This document shows positions 26,573 to 38,094 of a stretch of DNA of 64,000 nucleotides, in pieces (within the stretch, counting starts at the first letter, position 1; each line of letters starts with the position of its first letter). The DNA is taken from assembly GCA_050187915.1 (NCBI GenBank), contig JBFXLI010000001.1, positions 35,920 through 99,919 of the forward strand, given 5' to 3'. Made by a program: the position numbers and the translations under genes. The DNA comes from Candidatus Woesearchaeota archaeon. GTDB taxonomy: Archaea; Nanobdellota; Nanobdellia; Woesearchaeales; SKGA01. The notes under the pieces were generated by a model. The model was given only the letters and a program-made list of their open reading frames with translations, was not told the origin of the DNA and did no database searches.

Positions 26573-26742
26573 ATCAATCACATTTTTATTTTTTAGCCAA
26601 AATTCTGTGTAAAATTTTAGCAACCAAGAAATCGCATATAAAGAAAATCCTATACGCGTTAACTCGGATTTATATAATTAAGAAATTTCATTAATTTATA
26701 AAGGTTTGGTTATAATGTTCACTTATAAATTCAAATAAAACG

Positions 26743-26817
26743 GGCAGGGCCTGGGATTTGAACCCAAACTAGAAGATCCACAGTCTTCTGTGCTAACCAG
26801 ATTACACTAACCCCACC
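26743..26817 (-). tRNA. tRNA-His (anticodon GUG), with the G-1 residue genomically encoded and no encoded CCA.
   Basis: The minus strand reads G(-1)-GTGGGGT-TA-GTGT-AATCTGGTTA-GCAC-A-GAAGA-CTGTGGA-TCTTC-TAGTT-TTGGG-TTCAAAT-CCCAG-GCCCTGC-C. The cloverleaf folds: acceptor 7 bp (three G.U pairs), D arm 4 bp, anticodon stem GAAGA/TCTTC with loop CTGTGGA (U33, GTG at 34-36, G37), T arm TTGGG/CCCAG with a TTCAAAT loop, and discriminator C73 pairing G-1. A TATA-like TTTATAT sits ~25 nt upstream. Confidence 0.8.
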
Positions 26818-26857: not shown

Positions 26858-26989
26858 GTTACGAGTGAAATAAGTAACCTAGGAATGTTAATGAGTATGG
26901 TTTTGAAGAACGTAGTTCGAAAAACTTAGGAACGTCAGTGAGTATTGTTACGAGTGAAATAAGTAACCTAGGAATATTAATGAGTAGAG
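26858..26989. repeat. Degenerate tandem/direct repeat (~89-bp period, two 43-bp copies plus a partial internal copy) between the Lrp gene and tRNA-His.
   Basis: GTTACGAGTGAAATAAGTAACCTAGGAAT[G/A]TTAATGAGTA occurs at 26858-26900 and again at 26947-26989. The 46-bp stretch between them holds a third degenerate half-copy (TAGGAACGTCAGTGAGTATTG). Each unit contains a hairpin GTTAC-N11-GTAAC. Confidence 0.5.
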
Positions 26990-27148
26990 TTATGATGAAA
27001 TTAAATTAAAGAAAATAATGGAAATGTATTTTCAAGCTAAAATACGGGTAGTAATTATGTTTTTTCATTATTTATGTTTGTTTGTTAACTTATCTTTCTT
27101 ATTTAAACACAATTGGTTGCTTGAAAATACACCCAAAATTATAACAAA

Positions 27149-30099: not shown

Positions 30100-33000
30100 A
30101 TGGAATTCAAAACTATCACAGAAAAATGGCAGAAAAAATGGGAAGAAGGAAAAATATTTGAAGTTGAAAAAAACGAAAAACCTAAATTTTATGTTTTAGA
30201 AATGTTTCCTTATCCTTCGGGTTCTGGACTTCATGTTGGTCATGCATTTAATTATACTATTGGAGATGTTATTGCAAGGTTTAAATTAATGAATGGTTTT
30301 AATGTATTGCATCCAATGGGATATGATAGTTTTGGTTTACCAGCTGAAAATGCTGCGATAAAAGAAGGTATGCATCCTGATGAATATACACAAAAGTCTA
30401 TGAAAAATTTTAAAATTCAACAAAAAAGATTGGGATTAACTTATGATTGGAATAGAATGGTCGCAACTAGTACTTCTGAATTCTATAAATGGGATCAATG
30501 GATTTTCATTCAAATGTATAAAAAAGGTTTAGCTTATCGTAAAAAGTCTCCTATTAATTGGTGTCCAAAATGTAATACTGTTTTAGCCAATGAACAAGTT
30601 CATAATGGAAAGTGTTGGCGTCATGAAGATACTTCTGTTGAAATTAAACATTTGACTCAATGGTATTTTAAAACAACTGCTTATGCTGAAGAATTAAATG
30701 ATCAAAGTAAACTTGAAGAATGGCCTGAATTAGTTAAAAAACTACAAAAAAATTGGATTGGTAAAAGTTATGGTACTGAAGTTGTCTTTAGTATTAAAGA
30801 TAAAAATATATCTAATGTAATTATTGTTCATGGTTCAAATTCAACTGAAGAAGGGTCAAAAAAATCTCCTGAAAATGAAAGACATTGGAAACGTTGGTTG
30901 AAAAACGAACTTGAAAAAGAAGGAATTAAAGTTTCAAATGAATTGTATCCTAATGATTGGTATCCTAAATATAATGATTGGAAAGAATTATTTGAAAAAA
31001 ATAATATTGATGAAAATAGCATATTAATAGGACATTCTGCAGGTGGAGCATTTTTAGTTAGATGGTTAGATGAAACTGGAAGAAAAATAAAAAAATTAAT
31101 ACTAGTATCACCAGGAAAAGCAGGAAAACAAAGTAGAAATTTTTTGGATGATCTTTATGGAAATGTAACAATTAAAAATATTGGTAAAAATGTTAAGAGT
31201 GAAATTGTTATTTATACTTCAAACAATGATATTGAAAAACACATTATTGGAGCTAAAGAATATTCTGAAGAATTACCTGCTAAAGTAATAACTCTTGAAA
31301 ACAAGGGACATTTCACAGAAAAAGAAATGGGTACAAAAGAATTTCCTGAATTATTAAATGAAGTTCTATATGAAGATTGGAAAGTTTTCACAACTCGTCC
31401 AGATACTTTAATGGGAGTTACATTTTTAGTAATCTCAGCTCAACACACAAGACTAATGGAATTAGTTACAAAAGATCAAAAGAAAAAAGTTGAAGATTTT
31501 GTGAAAAAATTAACTTCTGTATCTGAAGAAGAAATTGACCAATTAGAGAAAGAAGGAGTATTTACTGGCAGTTATGCAACCCATCCAATTACAAATGAAA
31601 AAATTCCAGTTTATGCTGGTAATTTCGTTCTAGCTGATTATGGTTGTGGTATGGTTATGGCTGTTCCTACTCATGATCAAAGAGATTTTGAATTTGCAAA
31701 AAAATATAATATTCCTATGAAGCAAGTTATTGCGCCATATTTTATAACTGACAAAGGTCCTGATGCTTTTCAGGTAGGAAAACCAGTTGTGAAAAGACAT
31801 TCAATTCATGTTATAATAAAACATTGGAGTGAAGATAAATACTTATGTCTTGATTGGACTAAATTTGGTTGGCATACTTTAGTTGTAGGAGGAATAAATG
31901 AAGGAGAATCTCCTGAAGAAGCTACAGTTAGAGAAATTGAAGAAGAAACAGGTTATCAAGACATTAAATCAATTAAAAATTTAAACTTAGATATAATTGG
32001 TGAATTTTACGCTTCTCATAAAAATGAAAATCGTTCCGCACATTTTGTTTCTATGTTTGTGGAACTGGGTTCTGATAAACAAGTTGAAACTAAACCAGAA
32101 CATAATAAACATCATAAAATGGTTTGGTTAGATAAAAAGGATGTAATGAATTTTTTAAACATTCCAACTTATAATAAAAATTGGGAAACTTATTTGAATG
32201 AAGAATGTGCATACACTGATGCTGGAAGATTAATTAATTCTGGTAATTTTAATGATTTACCTAACGATAAAGCTAAAGAAGAAATCACAAAAGAACTTAC
32301 AAAATTAAATAAAGGGAATAAAACTGTAAATTTTAAATTAAGAGATTGGTTAATTTCCAGACAACGATATTGGGGAACACCTATTCCAATAATTTATTGT
32401 GAAAATTGTGGTGAAGTTCTTGATGAAAATATTCCTGTTACTTTACCTATGGATGTTAAATTTGGTGAAGGTAATCCTTTAACAACTTCAGAAAGTTTTG
32501 TTAATTGCAAATGTCCTAAGTGTGGAAATGATGCAAAACGTGAAACAGATACTATGGATACTTTTGTTAATTCGTCTTGGTATAATTTAAGATATGCTGA
32601 TGCAAAAAATAATAAAGAAATTTTCAACAAAGAAAAAGTAAATTATTGGAATCCAATTGATTTATACATTGGCGGAAAAGAACACGCTTGTATGCATTTA
32701 ATATATATTAGATTCTATACTAAATTTTTACGAGATTTGGGATTATTAAATTTTGATGAGCCTGCAATTAAAATGTTTAACCAAGGTATGATTCAAGGTG
32801 CTGATGGAAATAAAATGTCTAAATCTAAAGGTAATACTGTTGATGTTACTGAAATTATTGATAAATATGGTGCTGATGCATTAAGAATGTATTTAGTTTC
32901 TGTTGCTGGACCTGAATCTGATTTTAACTGGAATGATAGAGGTTTAGAATCTATTGCAAAATTTTTGAATAAAGTAGAAGATTATTTTGAAAATGTTAGA

Positions 33001-33702
33001 ATAAATTCTTCAACACAAAAAACAAATAATAAAGTTCATTCAACATTGAAAGAAGTTACAATTTTAATTGAAAAGATGAGATTTAATTTAGCAATAATTA
33101 AAATAAGAGAATTATTTGATTATTTATCTAATGAAGAAAGTAAAGAAAATTTAGAAATATTTGTAAAAATGTTAAGTCCTTTTTGTCCTCATTTAGCAGA
33201 AGAATTATCGGAAAAAATTGGTAATAAAGAATTTGTTTCAATTTCAAATTGGCCTAAATTTGATGAAAGTAAAATAAATTCTGAATTTGATTTTGAAGAT
33301 AAATTTATTTTAGAAGTTAAAGAAGATATTTCAAATGTTCAAAAATTACTTAAAATAGAAAAAATAAATTCTTTGAAATTAATAGTTGCAAATAAATGGA
33401 AATATGATTTATATTTAAAATTAAAATCAATATTAAATGAAATTTCAAATCCAAATGAAATTATTCCTAAAATTATGAATTCAGAATTAAAACAATATGG
33501 ACAAGAAATTATGAAAATAGTTCCTAAAATTGTAAAAACAAAAGTAGTTCCTGATTTTGTTTCTCAAGAGAAAGAAGAAGAAATTCTTAAAAATTTAGTT
33601 AAGGAATTTGATTTTAAAGTTGAAGTTAGTTTAGCTGAAGACTCACAAGAAGCAAAAGCAAAGAATGCAATGCCCGGTAAACCAAGCATAATTGTAAATT
33701 AA
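30100..33702 (+). CDS. leuS: Leucyl-tRNA synthetase, bacterial type, 1200 aa, carrying two inserted domains (alpha/beta serine hydrolase and NUDIX).
   Basis: PYPSGSGLHVGHAFNYTIGD (HIGH), TTRPDTLMGVTF (CP1 start), VPTHDQRDFEFAKKY, RDWLISRQRYWGTPIP, and KMSKSKGN (KMSKS). Insertion 1 is at ~30817-31367 (GHSAGG, YdeN-like). Insertion 2 is at ~31735-32215 (Nudix box GGINEGESPEEATVREIEEETGY). Confidence 0.9.
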   Translation: MEFKTITEKWQKKWEEGKIFEVEKNEKPKFYVLEMFPYPSGSGLHVGHAFNYTIGDVIARFKLMNGFNVLHPMGYDSFGLPAENAAIKEGMHPDEYTQKSMKNFKIQQKRLGLTYDWNRMVATSTSEFYKWDQWIFIQMYKKGLAYRKKSPINWCPKCNTVLANEQVHNGKCWRHEDTSVEIKHLTQWYFKTTAYAEELNDQSKLEEWPELVKKLQKNWIGKSYGTEVVFSIKDKNISNVIIVHGSNSTEEGSKKSPENERHWKRWLKNELEKEGIKVSNELYPNDWYPKYNDWKELFEKNNIDENSILIGHSAGGAFLVRWLDETGRKIKKLILVSPGKAGKQSRNFLDDLYGNVTIKNIGKNVKSEIVIYTSNNDIEKHIIGAKEYSEELPAKVITLENKGHFTEKEMGTKEFPELLNEVLYEDWKVFTTRPDTLMGVTFLVISAQHTRLMELVTKDQKKKVEDFVKKLTSVSEEEIDQLEKEGVFTGSYATHPITNEKIPVYAGNFVLADYGCGMVMAVPTHDQRDFEFAKKYNIPMKQVIAPYFITDKGPDAFQVGKPVVKRHSIHVIIKHWSEDKYLCLDWTKFGWHTLVVGGINEGESPEEATVREIEEETGYQDIKSIKNLNLDIIGEFYASHKNENRSAHFVSMFVELGSDKQVETKPEHNKHHKMVWLDKKDVMNFLNIPTYNKNWETYLNEECAYTDAGRLINSGNFNDLPNDKAKEEITKELTKLNKGNKTVNFKLRDWLISRQRYWGTPIPIIYCENCGEVLDENIPVTLPMDVKFGEGNPLTTSESFVNCKCPKCGNDAKRETDTMDTFVNSSWYNLRYADAKNNKEIFNKEKVNYWNPIDLYIGGKEHACMHLIYIRFYTKFLRDLGLLNFDEPAIKMFNQGMIQGADGNKMSKSKGNTVDVTEIIDKYGADALRMYLVSVAGPESDFNWNDRGLESIAKFLNKVEDYFENVRINSSTQKTNNKVHSTLKEVTILIEKMRFNLAIIKIRELFDYLSNEESKENLEIFVKMLSPFCPHLAEELSEKIGNKEFVSISNWPKFDESKINSEFDFEDKFILEVKEDISNVQKLLKIEKINSLKLIVANKWKYDLYLKLKSILNEISNPNEIIPKIMNSELKQYGQEIMKIVPKIVKTKVVPDFVSQEKEEEILKNLVKEFDFKVEVSLAEDSQEAKAKNAMPGKPSIIVN

Positions 33703-33724: not shown

Positions 33725-34050
33725 TGAAAGAAAAAACTGACGTCTGCTCCACTGATTCGCTGACTCCAGAAAAAAGTGGCGCGCAAGGCAGTGGACTTAA
33801 CAAATATCTGAATGATAGTCTGAAATAATTCTACTCTCTGCAACCCTTTAAACACCGATTGAATGTACGCATGGCTGCTACCGTCAGGTCCTGACCAGGT
33901 TTGTAAAACAAACGATCAAAAAGGACAGAGCATCAAACAAATTAAATCAGCATGCAAACATTTGCAAGCCGCCTGCCAAGCTTCGATTCGCCCAACGATC
34001 CGTTTGACGCAACAGGTGAGGATCAGCCACCCAATCTAGCCATCTTTAGA
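33725..34050. other. Non-coding GC-rich island (~48-50% GC against a ~27% background); candidate structured RNA (possibly SRP/7S RNA on the minus strand) or foreign DNA.
   Basis: No ORF of 60 aa or more apart from one spurious one overlapping the LeuRS end. It contains GACGTC, GCGCGC, AAGCTT and GCATGC, all rare in this genome. The minus strand carries CCUGGUCAGGACCUGACGGUAGCAGCC, which resembles SRP RNA helix 8 (CCAGGUCAGGUCCGGAAGGAAGCAGCC in E. coli 4.5S), with the U-A pair covarying to A-U. Confidence 0.3.
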
Positions 34051-34080: not shown

Positions 34081-35001
34081 CTAAATTAAAAAAATCAATA
34101 ACCAACTAAAAATAGCTCCTAGAAAGCATCCCATTGAAATAAATGGCATTGCAGGATAAAATTTGCCTTTTTTAGAATAGTAAAATAATAAGAATAAAGC
34201 TAAAGTTGTTATAATTATTATTGGTAAAACGAATAAATAAGAGTTTATAATTGAAAAACCATTTTTAATTAAATTTTCCATAACAACTCCTGTAAATAAC
34301 AATGGAAAAACTACGTCTCCTCCACCAAGTATTGCTGTTTTTGATTTATTTTTTGTAGAATTTTTTAAATTTATTTTTTTATGAGATTGTTTTATTTTAT
34401 TTGCTTCATAATTTATTGTCAATCCTGCAAACATATTTGATTCTGCTGTAAACTTTGCTAAAGTAATCATGTGTTTACTTTTCCAAACTGCATACATATC
34501 ATATATTGAAATTAAAATTAATACTATTGAAATCCAAAATAAATCAAATAAAGGAACTAAAAATATTGCAAGTCCTGAATACATTAAAACTTCAGTTATA
34601 TTGTGAGTATATATATTTGGTTTTAATATTTTTATTGTAGCTATAATTATTGCTAAAATTAAAGCAATTTGTGCAGATAGAATTACACCTAAACTTATTG
34701 ATACTGTCATTATTACTGCTAATATGTACCAAAATTTCCAAATTTTTTTAGCCTTGTATTTAGCTAAAAATAACAATAATAATGTTCCAATTAATACTCC
34801 TATTATTATATATATTAAGCTTTGCCCACCATTAAATTCAGGACGTTCACCTATTACTGTTTCTGGATGTACAACAACTAATTCTCCTGTATCAGATATT
34901 GTTAAATTATCTATATCTGCTGCAATAAAAGCTAAACCTATTAATTGAGATAAGAAAAATATAAAAACTAAAATTAATGTTACTTTAAATTCATGTTTCA
35001 T
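34081..35001 (-). CDS. Presenilin/signal-peptide-peptidase-like intramembrane aspartyl protease (A22 family homolog).
   Basis: Polytopic membrane protein with the three hallmark motifs in order: ISIYDMYAVW (YD), AILGGGDVVFP (GxGD), and FYPAMPFIS (the PAL-like motif). Confidence 0.6.
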   Translation of the reverse strand: MKHEFKVTLILVFIFFLSQLIGLAFIAADIDNLTISDTGELVVVHPETVIGERPEFNGGQSLIYIIIGVLIGTLLLLFLAKYKAKKIWKFWYILAVIMTVSISLGVILSAQIALILAIIIATIKILKPNIYTHNITEVLMYSGLAIFLVPLFDLFWISIVLILISIYDMYAVWKSKHMITLAKFTAESNMFAGLTINYEANKIKQSHKKINLKNSTKNKSKTAILGGGDVVFPLLFTGVVMENLIKNGFSIINSYLFVLPIIIITTLALFLLFYYSKKGKFYPAMPFISMGCFLGAIFSWLLIFLI

Positions 35002-35915
35002 CTATTTTTAGAAGTTTTAGTTGGTTTAATAATGTTTTTCTTTTTGGGAGAAATTTTTGATTTTTTGACTGATTTCTTTTTGACTGATTTCTTTTTGACT
35101 GATTTCTTTGATTTATCAATTGAAATATTATTCTTAACATTATTAGTATATGCCGAAAAAGAACTATTTTCACTAAAGAATTTTGAAGTTCTAGATATTT
35201 TTATCATTCTTGTGAGTCTAAAACTTGTTTGAAAAATTTTTATAATTCTAGCAGCTCTAACTATTTTAAATGCTCTAAAAAAACCTATTGAAGGTATTGA
35301 AGCTAAAACATCGAAAAAGTTTTTTGTAATGAATTTTTTAAAAGATTCAGCTTTTTCATAAAGTATTATTACATCAACTATAAATAAAGCAGTTATAATT
35401 AAATCAACCATATCTAATATTGCAATATAATTTGATAAATCATAAAATGTTTGGAGTAAAAGTTGTAAAATTGCTACTGCTACTGCTACTAAAATAATTA
35501 TTCCCCATAATATTTCAAAAGAAGATTTATCTAAATGTTCGGGCGTAATTTCTGAATGAATTGAATCTTCTATTCCTGATGCTTTAGTAATTGTGTTTAA
35601 TATTTCTTTAAATCCAACTGTAACTACAGAAGCTGCTGAAACTAATATGAAATTGGATAATATTTTACCAAATGGTGAAAGTGAAAAAAATGAACCTAAC
35701 ATATTTAATAAAATTGAACCTGCAATAACAAATGAAACACTTGCAATCAGAAAATCTTTTTCTTCTGAAAGTAAAAATAAACCTACTAAAACTCCTGAAA
35801 ATACGAGTACAATTGATTTTGCAATTTGTAAATTAACTGAAAATGTTTGGAAAGAACCATCTATTATTGCGAGCATTGAAGCTAAGACAAAAAAATAAAG
35901 TCCTACTTTGTTCAT
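34998..35915 (-). CDS. Membrane protein with a voltage-sensor-like domain (S4-type Arg/Lys repeats) and a K-rich repetitive C-terminal tail.
   Basis: Four N-terminal TM helices. Then an S2/S3-like helix with acidic residues (LDMVDLIITALFIVDVIILY). Then FRAFKIVRAARIIKIFQTSFRLTRMIKISR, with a basic residue every third position. The tail is KSVKKKSVKKKSVKKSKISPKKK. No pore-loop/selectivity filter is evident. Confidence 0.45.
   Translation of the reverse strand: MNKVGLYFFVLASMLAIIDGSFQTFSVNLQIAKSIVLVFSGVLVGLFLLSEEKDFLIASVSFVIAGSILLNMLGSFFSLSPFGKILSNFILVSAASVVTVGFKEILNTITKASGIEDSIHSEITPEHLDKSSFEILWGIIILVAVAVAILQLLLQTFYDLSNYIAILDMVDLIITALFIVDVIILYEKAESFKKFITKNFFDVLASIPSIGFFRAFKIVRAARIIKIFQTSFRLTRMIKISRTSKFFSENSSFSAYTNNVKNNISIDKSKKSVKKKSVKKKSVKKSKISPKKKNIIKPTKTSKNR
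35061..35110. repeat. 15-bp tandem repeat (~3 copies) inside the CDS, encoding the KSVKK repeats.
   Basis: GACTGATTTCTTTTT repeated three times head to tail at 35067-35110. Confidence 0.7.
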
Positions 35916-36166
35916 TTTTTGTTGTTCCTCATCACTTTAATTCTTGCTTTTCTTACTTCATGATGTTCATCTATAGCTAATTCTTCTTCTATAGGTGCAT
36001 AAGTCATACTAATAAATGAAGCAACAAACATACAAATACTTATAAAACCGACAATAAAAGCCCAATTTAAAGAATAATTTTTTAAGAATAATGTTGAAAT
36101 TAATATTCCTAGCATAGATACTAACATAAAACTTCCAGATAATGGTGCTACTTTAAACATTCTCAA
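35912..36166 (-). CDS. Small two-TM membrane protein, hypothetical.
   Basis: 84 aa with two hydrophobic helices and a basic tail. Overlaps the downstream gene by 4 nt. Confidence 0.35.
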   Translation of the reverse strand: MRMFKVAPLSGSFMLVSMLGILISTLFLKNYSLNWAFIVGFISICMFVASFISMTYAPIEEELAIDEHHEVRKARIKVMRNNKK

Positions 36167-36211: not shown

Positions 36212-36433
36212 CTATTCGAGAAGTTCAAATCTAGGCACAATTTTGCCTTGAAATTCGACTTTTTCAAGAAACATTGATAATGGACGAACCCAAAATTCAT
36301 TAAAATTAGCATCTAATCTTTTGTATAAAACTAATTCTTCTAAAGTTTCGCTGTGTTTAGCAATTCCAATAACTTCATATAAATGTCCTTTAAAATTTCT
36401 ATATTTGCCTAATTTCAATTTTTCCATTGACAA
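36212..36433 (-). CDS. DUF1653-like small protein.
   Basis: KYRNFKGHLYEVIGIAKHSETLEELVLYKRL...WVRP, the pattern typical of DUF1653. Confidence 0.45.
   Translation of the reverse strand: MSMEKLKLGKYRNFKGHLYEVIGIAKHSETLEELVLYKRLDANFNEFWVRPLSMFLEKVEFQGKIVPRFELLE

Positions 36434-36510: not shown

Positions 36511-38094
<1,584 letters not shown>

Follow-up and report, generated by a model that had tools for sequence, protein, structure and literature searches.

A pore-less voltage-sensor domain in a woesearchaeal membrane protein encoded next to a presenilin homologue

Introduction

What might a voltage sensor do in a membrane protein that has no channel to gate? The question is raised by a locus in a 64,000-nucleotide stretch of contig JBFXLI010000001.1 (Candidatus Woesearchaeota assembly GCA_050187915.1, positions 35,920 to 99,919 of the forward strand), here called the window. 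At this locus a gene for a 305-residue protein lies between the genes for a small two-transmembrane (2-TM) protein and a presenilin/SPP-type intramembrane protease. Sequence comparison and structure modelling indicate that the 305-residue protein, referred to below as the 4TM-VSD protein, joins an orphan bundle of four TM helices to a four-helix voltage-sensor domain (VSD) homologous to those of prokaryotic Kv channels, and we found no pore to go with it.

Six-transmembrane (6-TM) channels have been treated as a free 4-TM sensor fused to a 2-TM pore, with examples of free sensors taken from eukaryotes only (PMC13095418, PMC6768053). In a 2024 review of voltage sensors, the pore-less VSD proteins named are all eukaryotic and Hv channels are given as absent from bacteria and archaea (PMC13095418), and a 2019 evolutionary analysis cites Hv1 and the voltage-sensing phosphatases (VSPs) as independent sensor modules and considers TolQ/MotA for a prokaryotic ancestry (PMC6768053). 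A full-text literature search of limited scope returned no description of archaeal pore-less VSD proteins. As far as that search goes, the arrangement has been described so far only in eukaryotes, and the 4TM-VSD protein presents a known domain in an architecture and a phylogenetic setting that are both new.

Results

The 305-residue protein has two groups of four membrane helices

The gene is the middle one of three on the minus strand, and the two open reading frames (ORFs) of the original prediction, 34998-35915 for the 4TM-VSD protein (305 residues) and 34081-35001 for the protease (306 residues), were recovered with exactly those coordinates and with their 4-nt overlap. The product is 100% identical to the NCBI entry 'hypothetical protein AB7V77_00445' of a Candidatus Woesearchaeota metagenome-assembled genome (MAG); this sole identical database entry comes from the same MAG as the window. 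G+C content of the region is ~25%. The gene and its parts are as follows.

34998-35915, minus strand: whole gene for the 305-residue protein with 4TM bundle, VSD and polybasic tail (ORF; 100% database match)
35580-35915, minus strand: N-terminal orphan 4-helix TM bundle, residues 1-112, with conserved F9, G41xxxG45 and N88
35220-35522, minus strand: VSD (S1-S4), residues 132-232
S1, residues 132-157: W137
S2, residues 161-188: D171, F178 and D181
S3, residues 192-206: D202, with P208 just after it
S4, residues 211-232: R214, K217, R220, R223 and K226
35154-35219, minus strand: post-S4 helix extension, residues 233-254, bearing a further series of basic residues and the motif K-F-F-S-x-x-S-x-F, which is specific to the family (AlphaFold2, conservation)
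35001-35153, minus strand: disordered polybasic C-terminal tail, residues 255-305, with 20 K/R and 1 D/E (pLDDT ~45-56)
35062-35109, no strand assigned: perfect 15-bp tandem repeat of 3.2 copies, (KSVKK)x3 in the tail (Tandem Repeats Finder score 96, 100% match)

The protein thus runs from the N-terminal 4-helix bundle through a cytoplasmic linker (residues ~113-131) to the S1-S4 VSD, the post-S4 helix with its KFFSxxSxF motif and a variable polybasic tail. Hydropathy and AlphaFold2 agreed on eight hydrophobic helices, four N-terminal and then four more, which bears out the earlier description of four TM helices followed by an S1-S4-like module. The model, built from a 55-sequence alignment, had a mean predicted local distance difference test (pLDDT) score of 78.6, with values of 85-98 over the N-terminal four helices (residues 2-112) and 85-95 over S1-S3. 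In this model the second group of helices has the four-helix fold of a VSD, and S4 and its extension were modelled as a single continuous helix (211-245). Modelled alone, the N-terminal domain gave a confident 4-helix bundle (pLDDT 93.5, predicted template modelling (pTM) score 0.85). It has no sequence relation to VSDs or to channel pores, and the idea that it is a degenerate VSD or pore arising by internal duplication was rejected (hhalign probability <1%).

Sensor residues are strictly kept and spaced as in Kv channels

A family profile trimmed of its tail and run with full HMMER against 1.84 billion representative proteins retrieved 565 proteins at E<=1e-3, and in the same library it matched Ion_trans channels at 1e-11 to 1e-7. 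Those VSD-plus-pore matches that were checked were true channels (Ion_trans + Ion_trans_2), with the match confined to their first 110-120 residues, the S1-S4 half, and short VSD-only matches aligned to Ion_trans profile positions 1-130. When the 55-member family was compared by hhalign with 17 TVGYGD channels, the probability was 99.4% (E 2.3e-21), with an alignment that covered S1-S4 and ended there. Pfam Ion_trans (PF00520) was reached by 15/55 family members (best 2.7e-9). A word-indexed homologue search with the 55-sequence profile yielded 4 proteins and added little, and a search for related loci with a 6-sequence alignment gave 4 genome loci. The profile comparison proposed as a check in the original prediction therefore gives a VSD for the family, through the Ion_trans matches of some members and the profile-profile match to K+ channel VSDs, with no such match for the query alone.

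Residue conservation was counted over 55 family clusters, whose members are 21-57% identical to the query. W137 in S1, F178 and D181 in the charge-transfer centre of S2, and D202 in S3 were each conserved in 55/55, P208 was kept in 98%, and the outer acidic residue of S2, D171, was D or E in 47/55. Basic residues occupied every third position of S4 (R214 in 38/55, K217 in 55/55, R220 as R/K in 55/55, position 223 in 52/55 and position 226 in 47/55). This series, read from the single sequence in the earlier description of an S4-like helix, is conserved across the clusters well beyond chance, and a second basic series follows it (R233, R236, K239, R242 and K245). The spacing D171-F178-D181-D202-P208-R214-K217 is that of the channel alignment columns D46-F53-D56-D77-P83-R89-R92. 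Together, the alignments and the model indicate that the S1-S4 module is a true VSD, homologous to those of prokaryotic Kv channels, in which the charge-transfer centre and the S4 charges have been strictly kept.

The likeness to prokaryotic 6-TM Kv channels (KvAP-type; PF00520 + PF07885) therefore lies in a homologous S1-S4 with the outer acidic residue, the F-x-x-D centre, the S3 Asp-x5-Pro and the basic triplet repeat of S4 at identical spacing. Unlike these channels, the 4TM-VSD protein has no S4-S5 linker, S5, P-loop with TVGYG filter or S6, and it has instead an extra 4-helix bundle N-terminal to S1 and a KFFS motif and polybasic tail after S4.

No pore accompanies the sensor, and the marks of Hv1 and VSP are missing

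The 305-residue protein ends 73 residues past S4, in a low-complexity tail, and the S5-P-loop-S6 unit with selectivity filter of a 6-TM channel was not found in it, the alignment with channels ending at S4. It contains no selectivity-filter-like motif and shows no similarity to pore domains, and the small upstream 84-residue protein has no filter motif either. No ORF in the window or in 16 related loci was matched by a pore hidden Markov model built from the channel matches, with a threshold as loose as E<=10 for the window and the first loci. That the S1-S4 module comes without an obvious pore, as first proposed, thus holds for the whole window and for the 16 loci.

A further suggestion, that the protein resembles the isolated sensors of Hv1 and VSP, stands only as far as the absence of a pore; the nearest relatives are prokaryotic Kv channels, and the features that define Hv1 and VSP are missing. 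An acidic residue at the S1 core positions 139-154, a mark of Hv1, was present in 0/55 members, as was the motif RxWRxxR (0/55). In place of the PTEN-like phosphatase that follows S4 in VSPs, there is a 22-residue motif region and a 51-residue disordered tail with no Pfam domain.

Like Hv1, TMEM266, Ci-VSP/TPTE and SLC9C1, the archaeal protein uses a VSD without a channel pore. Hv1 and TMEM266 share with it an S4 that runs on as a helix into the cytoplasm, and SLC9C1 shares the fusion of the VSD to a membrane domain that is not a pore. It differs from these eukaryotic proteins in being archaeal, in having Kv VSDs as its closest relatives in sequence, in lacking the Hv1 S1 Asp and RxWRxxR, and in carrying no phosphatase or other cytoplasmic enzyme domain. 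The domain joined to its VSD precedes the VSD in the chain and is a small orphan 4-TM bundle.

A conserved motif and a variable polybasic tail follow S4

The KFFSxxSxF motif was conserved at K245 (96% of members), F247 (89%), S248 (91%) and S251 (89%). Beyond it, residues 251-305 were mostly disordered in the AlphaFold2 model, apart from a short low-confidence helix at 253-264. Tails in the family range from 0 to 118 residues (median 22), with a median net charge of +7. Only 1/58 window ORFs of at least 120 residues had at least 40% K/R in the last 30 residues, and the tail is thus not a product of genome-wide bias; an artefact of AT-rich composition was ruled out on this count.

The original prediction had also reported a 15-bp repeat in three copies that encodes KSVKK, and Tandem Repeats Finder confirmed it at 3.2 copies and 100% match. 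On the coding strand the unit is AAATCAGTCAAAAAG x3, giving KSVKK x3. Among the 19 arrays in the 64-kb window it is the sole perfect one. Orthologous genes carry imperfect 12-27-bp repeats of their own in the tail region. In-frame duplication is therefore the way in which the tail evolves, and the 15-bp repeat is one such expansion of recent date. Elsewhere in the window, at 26858-27001, a 42-bp unit is repeated imperfectly in tandem 3.3 times (63% matches, score 117), ~40 nt from a tRNA-His gene (26742-26816).

Pore-less sensors of this lineage are not very rare in metagenomes

At 50% identity, the 4TM+VSD family comprises ~57 full-length clusters among the 1.84 billion representatives. Those members with a source name are all called 'hypothetical protein', and those with a named organism belong to Woesearchaeota/Nanobdellota. 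Architecture classes were assigned with local domain profiles to 154 proteins, essentially the best of the 565 matches.

Same 4TM+VSD architecture: 57 of the best 154
VSD only: 69 of the best 154
VSD plus pore: 23 of the best 154
N-terminal fragments: 5 of the best 154

Gene-call fragments may be among the 69 VSD-only entries, and two entries were confirmed as complete genes: P0067 (141 residues; locus L015, 914-1339, on an 11-kb contig), between NIF3 and GatD/GatE genes of archaeal type, and P0069 (163 residues; locus L016, 3001-3492, on a 57-kb contig), which is followed by an unannotated 363-residue gene. Both belong to the same VSD lineage (E ~1e-12 to the family profile) and are pore-less, and P0069 has a related post-S4 motif, 'RTTKLFSKE'. 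They differ from the 4TM-VSD family in having neither the N-terminal 4-helix bundle nor a long polybasic tail, and their genes are not adjacent to a presenilin gene. With 57 4TM+VSD and 69 VSD-only proteins in the best 154, isolated voltage sensors of this kind, called rare in archaea at the outset, are not very rare in metagenomes.

Member P0021 lies on a 1.6-kb contig (L012) of 61% G+C, compared with 25-44% at the other loci, and P0032, P0046 and P0051 have Ala/Pro-rich tails; the family therefore reaches archaea of higher G+C. Three MAGs with the gene trio (L005-L007) are labelled 'uncultured Methanosarcinales archaeon'. These labels look doubtful because gene content and synteny match Woesearchaeota/Nanobdellota loci.

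The adjacent gene encodes a presenilin homologue

The two genes that flank the one for the 4TM-VSD protein, and the RNA gene that follows them, are as follows.

35912-36166, minus strand: small 2-TM protein of 84 residues (ORF), first gene of the trio, whose stop overlaps the start of the VSD gene by 4 nt
34081-35001, minus strand: presenilin/SPP-family (MEROPS A22) intramembrane aspartyl protease of 306 residues, with D168, D229 and PAMP 283-286 (PF06550, 4HYC, motifs)
33773-34046, minus strand: archaeal signal recognition particle (SRP) RNA (Rfam RF01857, 101.3 bits against a gathering score of 96.5)

The protease matched Pfam PF06550 (SPP) at 45.7 bits, above the cut-off of 23.9 (E 7.8e-12; profile positions 32-277 of 283), and PDB 4HYC, the archaeal presenilin PSH, at E 7.8e-10 over residues 62-298. 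Both catalytic Asp motifs align in that match, Y167-D168 and G226-G-G-D229 standing opposite the YD and GMGD of PSH. Of the YD, GxGD and PAL(M) triad from which its membership of family A22 had been proposed, the two Asp motifs thus concur with Pfam and the PDB match. The third part reads P283-A284-M285-P286, with Met in place of the Leu of PAL, and in the PSH alignment it falls on the Pro-containing motif region at the C-terminus; the YD, GGGD and PAM(P) motifs are invariant in 4 orthologues. The protein is like PSH (MCMJR1, PDB 4HYC/4HYG) in its YD, GxGD and Pro-containing C-terminal motifs, and unlike it in reading PAM(P) instead of PAL, in having a Lys-rich TM6-TM7 loop and in scoring 73 bits against NCBIfam NF041679 (PSH), under the equivalog cut-off of 125. 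By its sequence it is an ordinary, somewhat divergent archaeal presenilin homologue of family A22 with predicted protease activity, and as a further member of an already known family it is routine.

Synteny of the trio is confined to one clade

Head to tail on the minus strand, the trio runs from the 2-TM protein through the 4TM-VSD protein to the protease, with a 4-nt ATGA stop/start overlap between the last two genes; because of the gene overlaps, co-transcription is likely. The three genes are adjacent, on the same strand and in the same order in 10 loci, nine of them close and one at 32% identity. In every syntenic locus the first gene of the trio encodes an orthologue of the 84-residue protein, 54-65% identical, and an invariant AP-x-E-x-E-L-x-x-D-E-H motif follows its TM2. 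The 84-residue protein has no significant match to a Pfam, NCBIfam or PADLOC family, and a weak AgrB-like Pfam match lies under the cut-off. No PADLOC model matched any of the three trio proteins, and a role in anti-phage defence was dropped.

A wider block is common to the trio loci with enough flank: a GAPDH gene upstream, the SRP RNA past the SPP gene and a leucyl-tRNA synthetase (LeuRS) gene beyond. The SRP RNA begins 35 nt downstream of the SPP gene in the window, and it lies downstream of SPP in 7/7 syntenic loci with enough flank (L001, L003, L005-L008 and L014), with its strand flipped in L003 and L001 and an extra gene inserted in L001. Since this wider neighbourhood is itself syntenic, the adjacency of the trio may be inherited, not selected.

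The distant members P0036, P0042 and P0051 have unrelated housekeeping neighbours and no SPP gene within 5 kb, or within their shorter flanks; the contigs of P0021 and P0028 were too short to inform on gene context. A family-wide linkage of VSD and protease was rejected on these three members; the linkage is therefore clade-specific, and functional coupling is not supported. The genes most probably stand together through synteny within the lineage and co-transcription and do not form an obligatory functional module.

What the sensor may do

Since there is no pore to gate and any movement would be relayed elsewhere, we read the 4TM-VSD protein as a non-conducting voltage sensor or transducer that acts through its 4-helix domain or its post-S4 motif, a reading that we hold to be probable and well short of assured. 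S4 would move with the membrane potential in the manner of Kv channels, and the post-S4 helix and the KFFS motif would relay this movement either to the 4-helix bundle fused to the VSD or to another protein that acts as its partner. The tail with its basic charges would rest on the anionic cytoplasmic surface of the membrane; a cytoplasmic tail agrees with the positive-inside rule and with the usual topology of VSDs, in which the C-terminus of S4 is inside. The protein would then work like TMEM266 or the VSD of VSP/SLC9C1, not as a channel.

Several results weigh against this reading. The 305-residue protein and its five closest homologues had no Pfam or NCBIfam match, the query none even at E 10, and direct PDB sequence matches of the query were sub-significant (E 0.28-1.9); such matches, for the query and for a 6-sequence profile, were the isolated KvAP voltage sensor (E 0.28) and S1-S2 of Kv10.1. 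In the AlphaFold2 model, pLDDT was modest over S4 and the post-S4 region (52-82), and the full-length pTM was 0.59, which makes the modelled geometry between the domains tentative. A Foldseek search of the 305-residue model against the PDB gave no match at E<=0.001 and is suggestive at most. Voltage-dependent movement is itself read from conservation only. Because few polar residues are conserved in the 4-helix domain and no relatives of its fold were recognised, an effector role for it is a guess. Finally, the close overlaps of the VSD gene with the genes on both sides, for the protease and for the small protein, are kept down to 32-33% identity of the VSD protein and leave room for a real functional link within the clade.

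In such a link the VSD protein would bind the presenilin homologue and gate it by membrane potential, with the 2-TM protein as substrate or adaptor. Voltage-regulated intramembrane proteolysis of this kind would suit three integral membrane proteins whose genes share a strand, overlap by 4 nt each and stay together in the 10 loci over the range of identities just given. We nevertheless think it very improbable: the neighbourhood from GAPDH through SRP RNA to LeuRS is syntenic as well, and the three distant members have neither the SPP nor the small-protein gene within the distances searched. It is also unlikely that the VSD itself conducts, as a minimal voltage-gated channel with an Hv1-like proton pathway or a gating-pore (omega) cation pathway, even if a pore-less VSD with a helical S4 extension parallels Hv1 and TMEM266 (PMC13095418). 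All 55 members lack both the acidic residue in the S1 core and RxWRxxR, and the closest sequences are those of Kv channels, not Hv1. Full S4 charges with an intact charge-transfer centre mark an occluded gating pore in Kv and Nav VSDs, and the five S4 charges and intact F/D/D centre of the archaeal protein are the signature of such a non-leaking pore.

The protein might instead be a channel after all, either because its N-terminal domain oligomerises into a novel VSD-gated pore or because the VSDs are supplied in trans to a pore-only subunit. The bundle is fused to the VSD in ~57 clusters, is very confidently predicted, contains the packing motif GxxxG and keeps an Asn within the membrane (Asn88), and VSDs are able to couple functionally with foreign pores according to two reports (PMC3581695; bioRxiv 10.64898/2026.08.07.743441). 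This possibility is nonetheless a slender one, given that neither a filter-like motif nor pore-domain similarity was seen, that the window and the loci examined hold no pore gene, and that stand-alone VSD-only relatives exist without the N-terminal domain. To our knowledge, all known VSD-pore proteins have the opposite domain order, so that the protein would reverse it. We likewise give little credence to the view that the VSD is a structural relic, in a membrane scaffold or tail-anchored polybasic protein that no longer senses voltage. A query below Pfam detection and the fast evolution of DPANN proteins would agree with decay, but F178, D181, D202, K217 and R220 (R/K) are 100% conserved among members only 21-57% identical to the query; these are exactly the residues that charge transfer requires, a pattern that a relic would not be expected to show. 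A non-conducting sensor or transducer remains the reading that we prefer.

The family and the related stand-alone 4-TM proteins, all with an intact charge-transfer centre and S4 charges and all pore-less, offer small, tractable prokaryotic VSDs with which to ask what a sensor does without a channel, and they can be used to find out whether free-standing sensors came before Kv channels or arose from them. They could serve as minimal scaffolds for biophysics or voltage indicators, and the family is one that current Pfam models miss. If, against long odds, the trio carries out voltage-controlled intramembrane proteolysis in this clade, presenilin-type cleavage would be coupled to membrane potential by the VSD protein, and the family as a whole would be the first case among prokaryotes of a voltage sensor whose output is not a channel.

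Neighbouring genes

Directly upstream of the trio, a gene at 36212-36433 (minus strand) encodes a DUF1653 protein (PF07866, 1.4e-24), and beyond it a divergently oriented gene at 36511-37083 (plus strand) encodes an NT5C-type 5'-nucleotidase (PF06941). On the other side, the LeuRS gene (30100-33702, plus strand) encodes a protein of 1200 residues with two extra internal domains: a Ser_hydrolase domain (PF06821, residues 259-418) directly ahead of the editing domain and a NUDIX domain (PF00293, residues 590-684) after it. The LeuRS orthologue in L003 also has the NUDIX domain.

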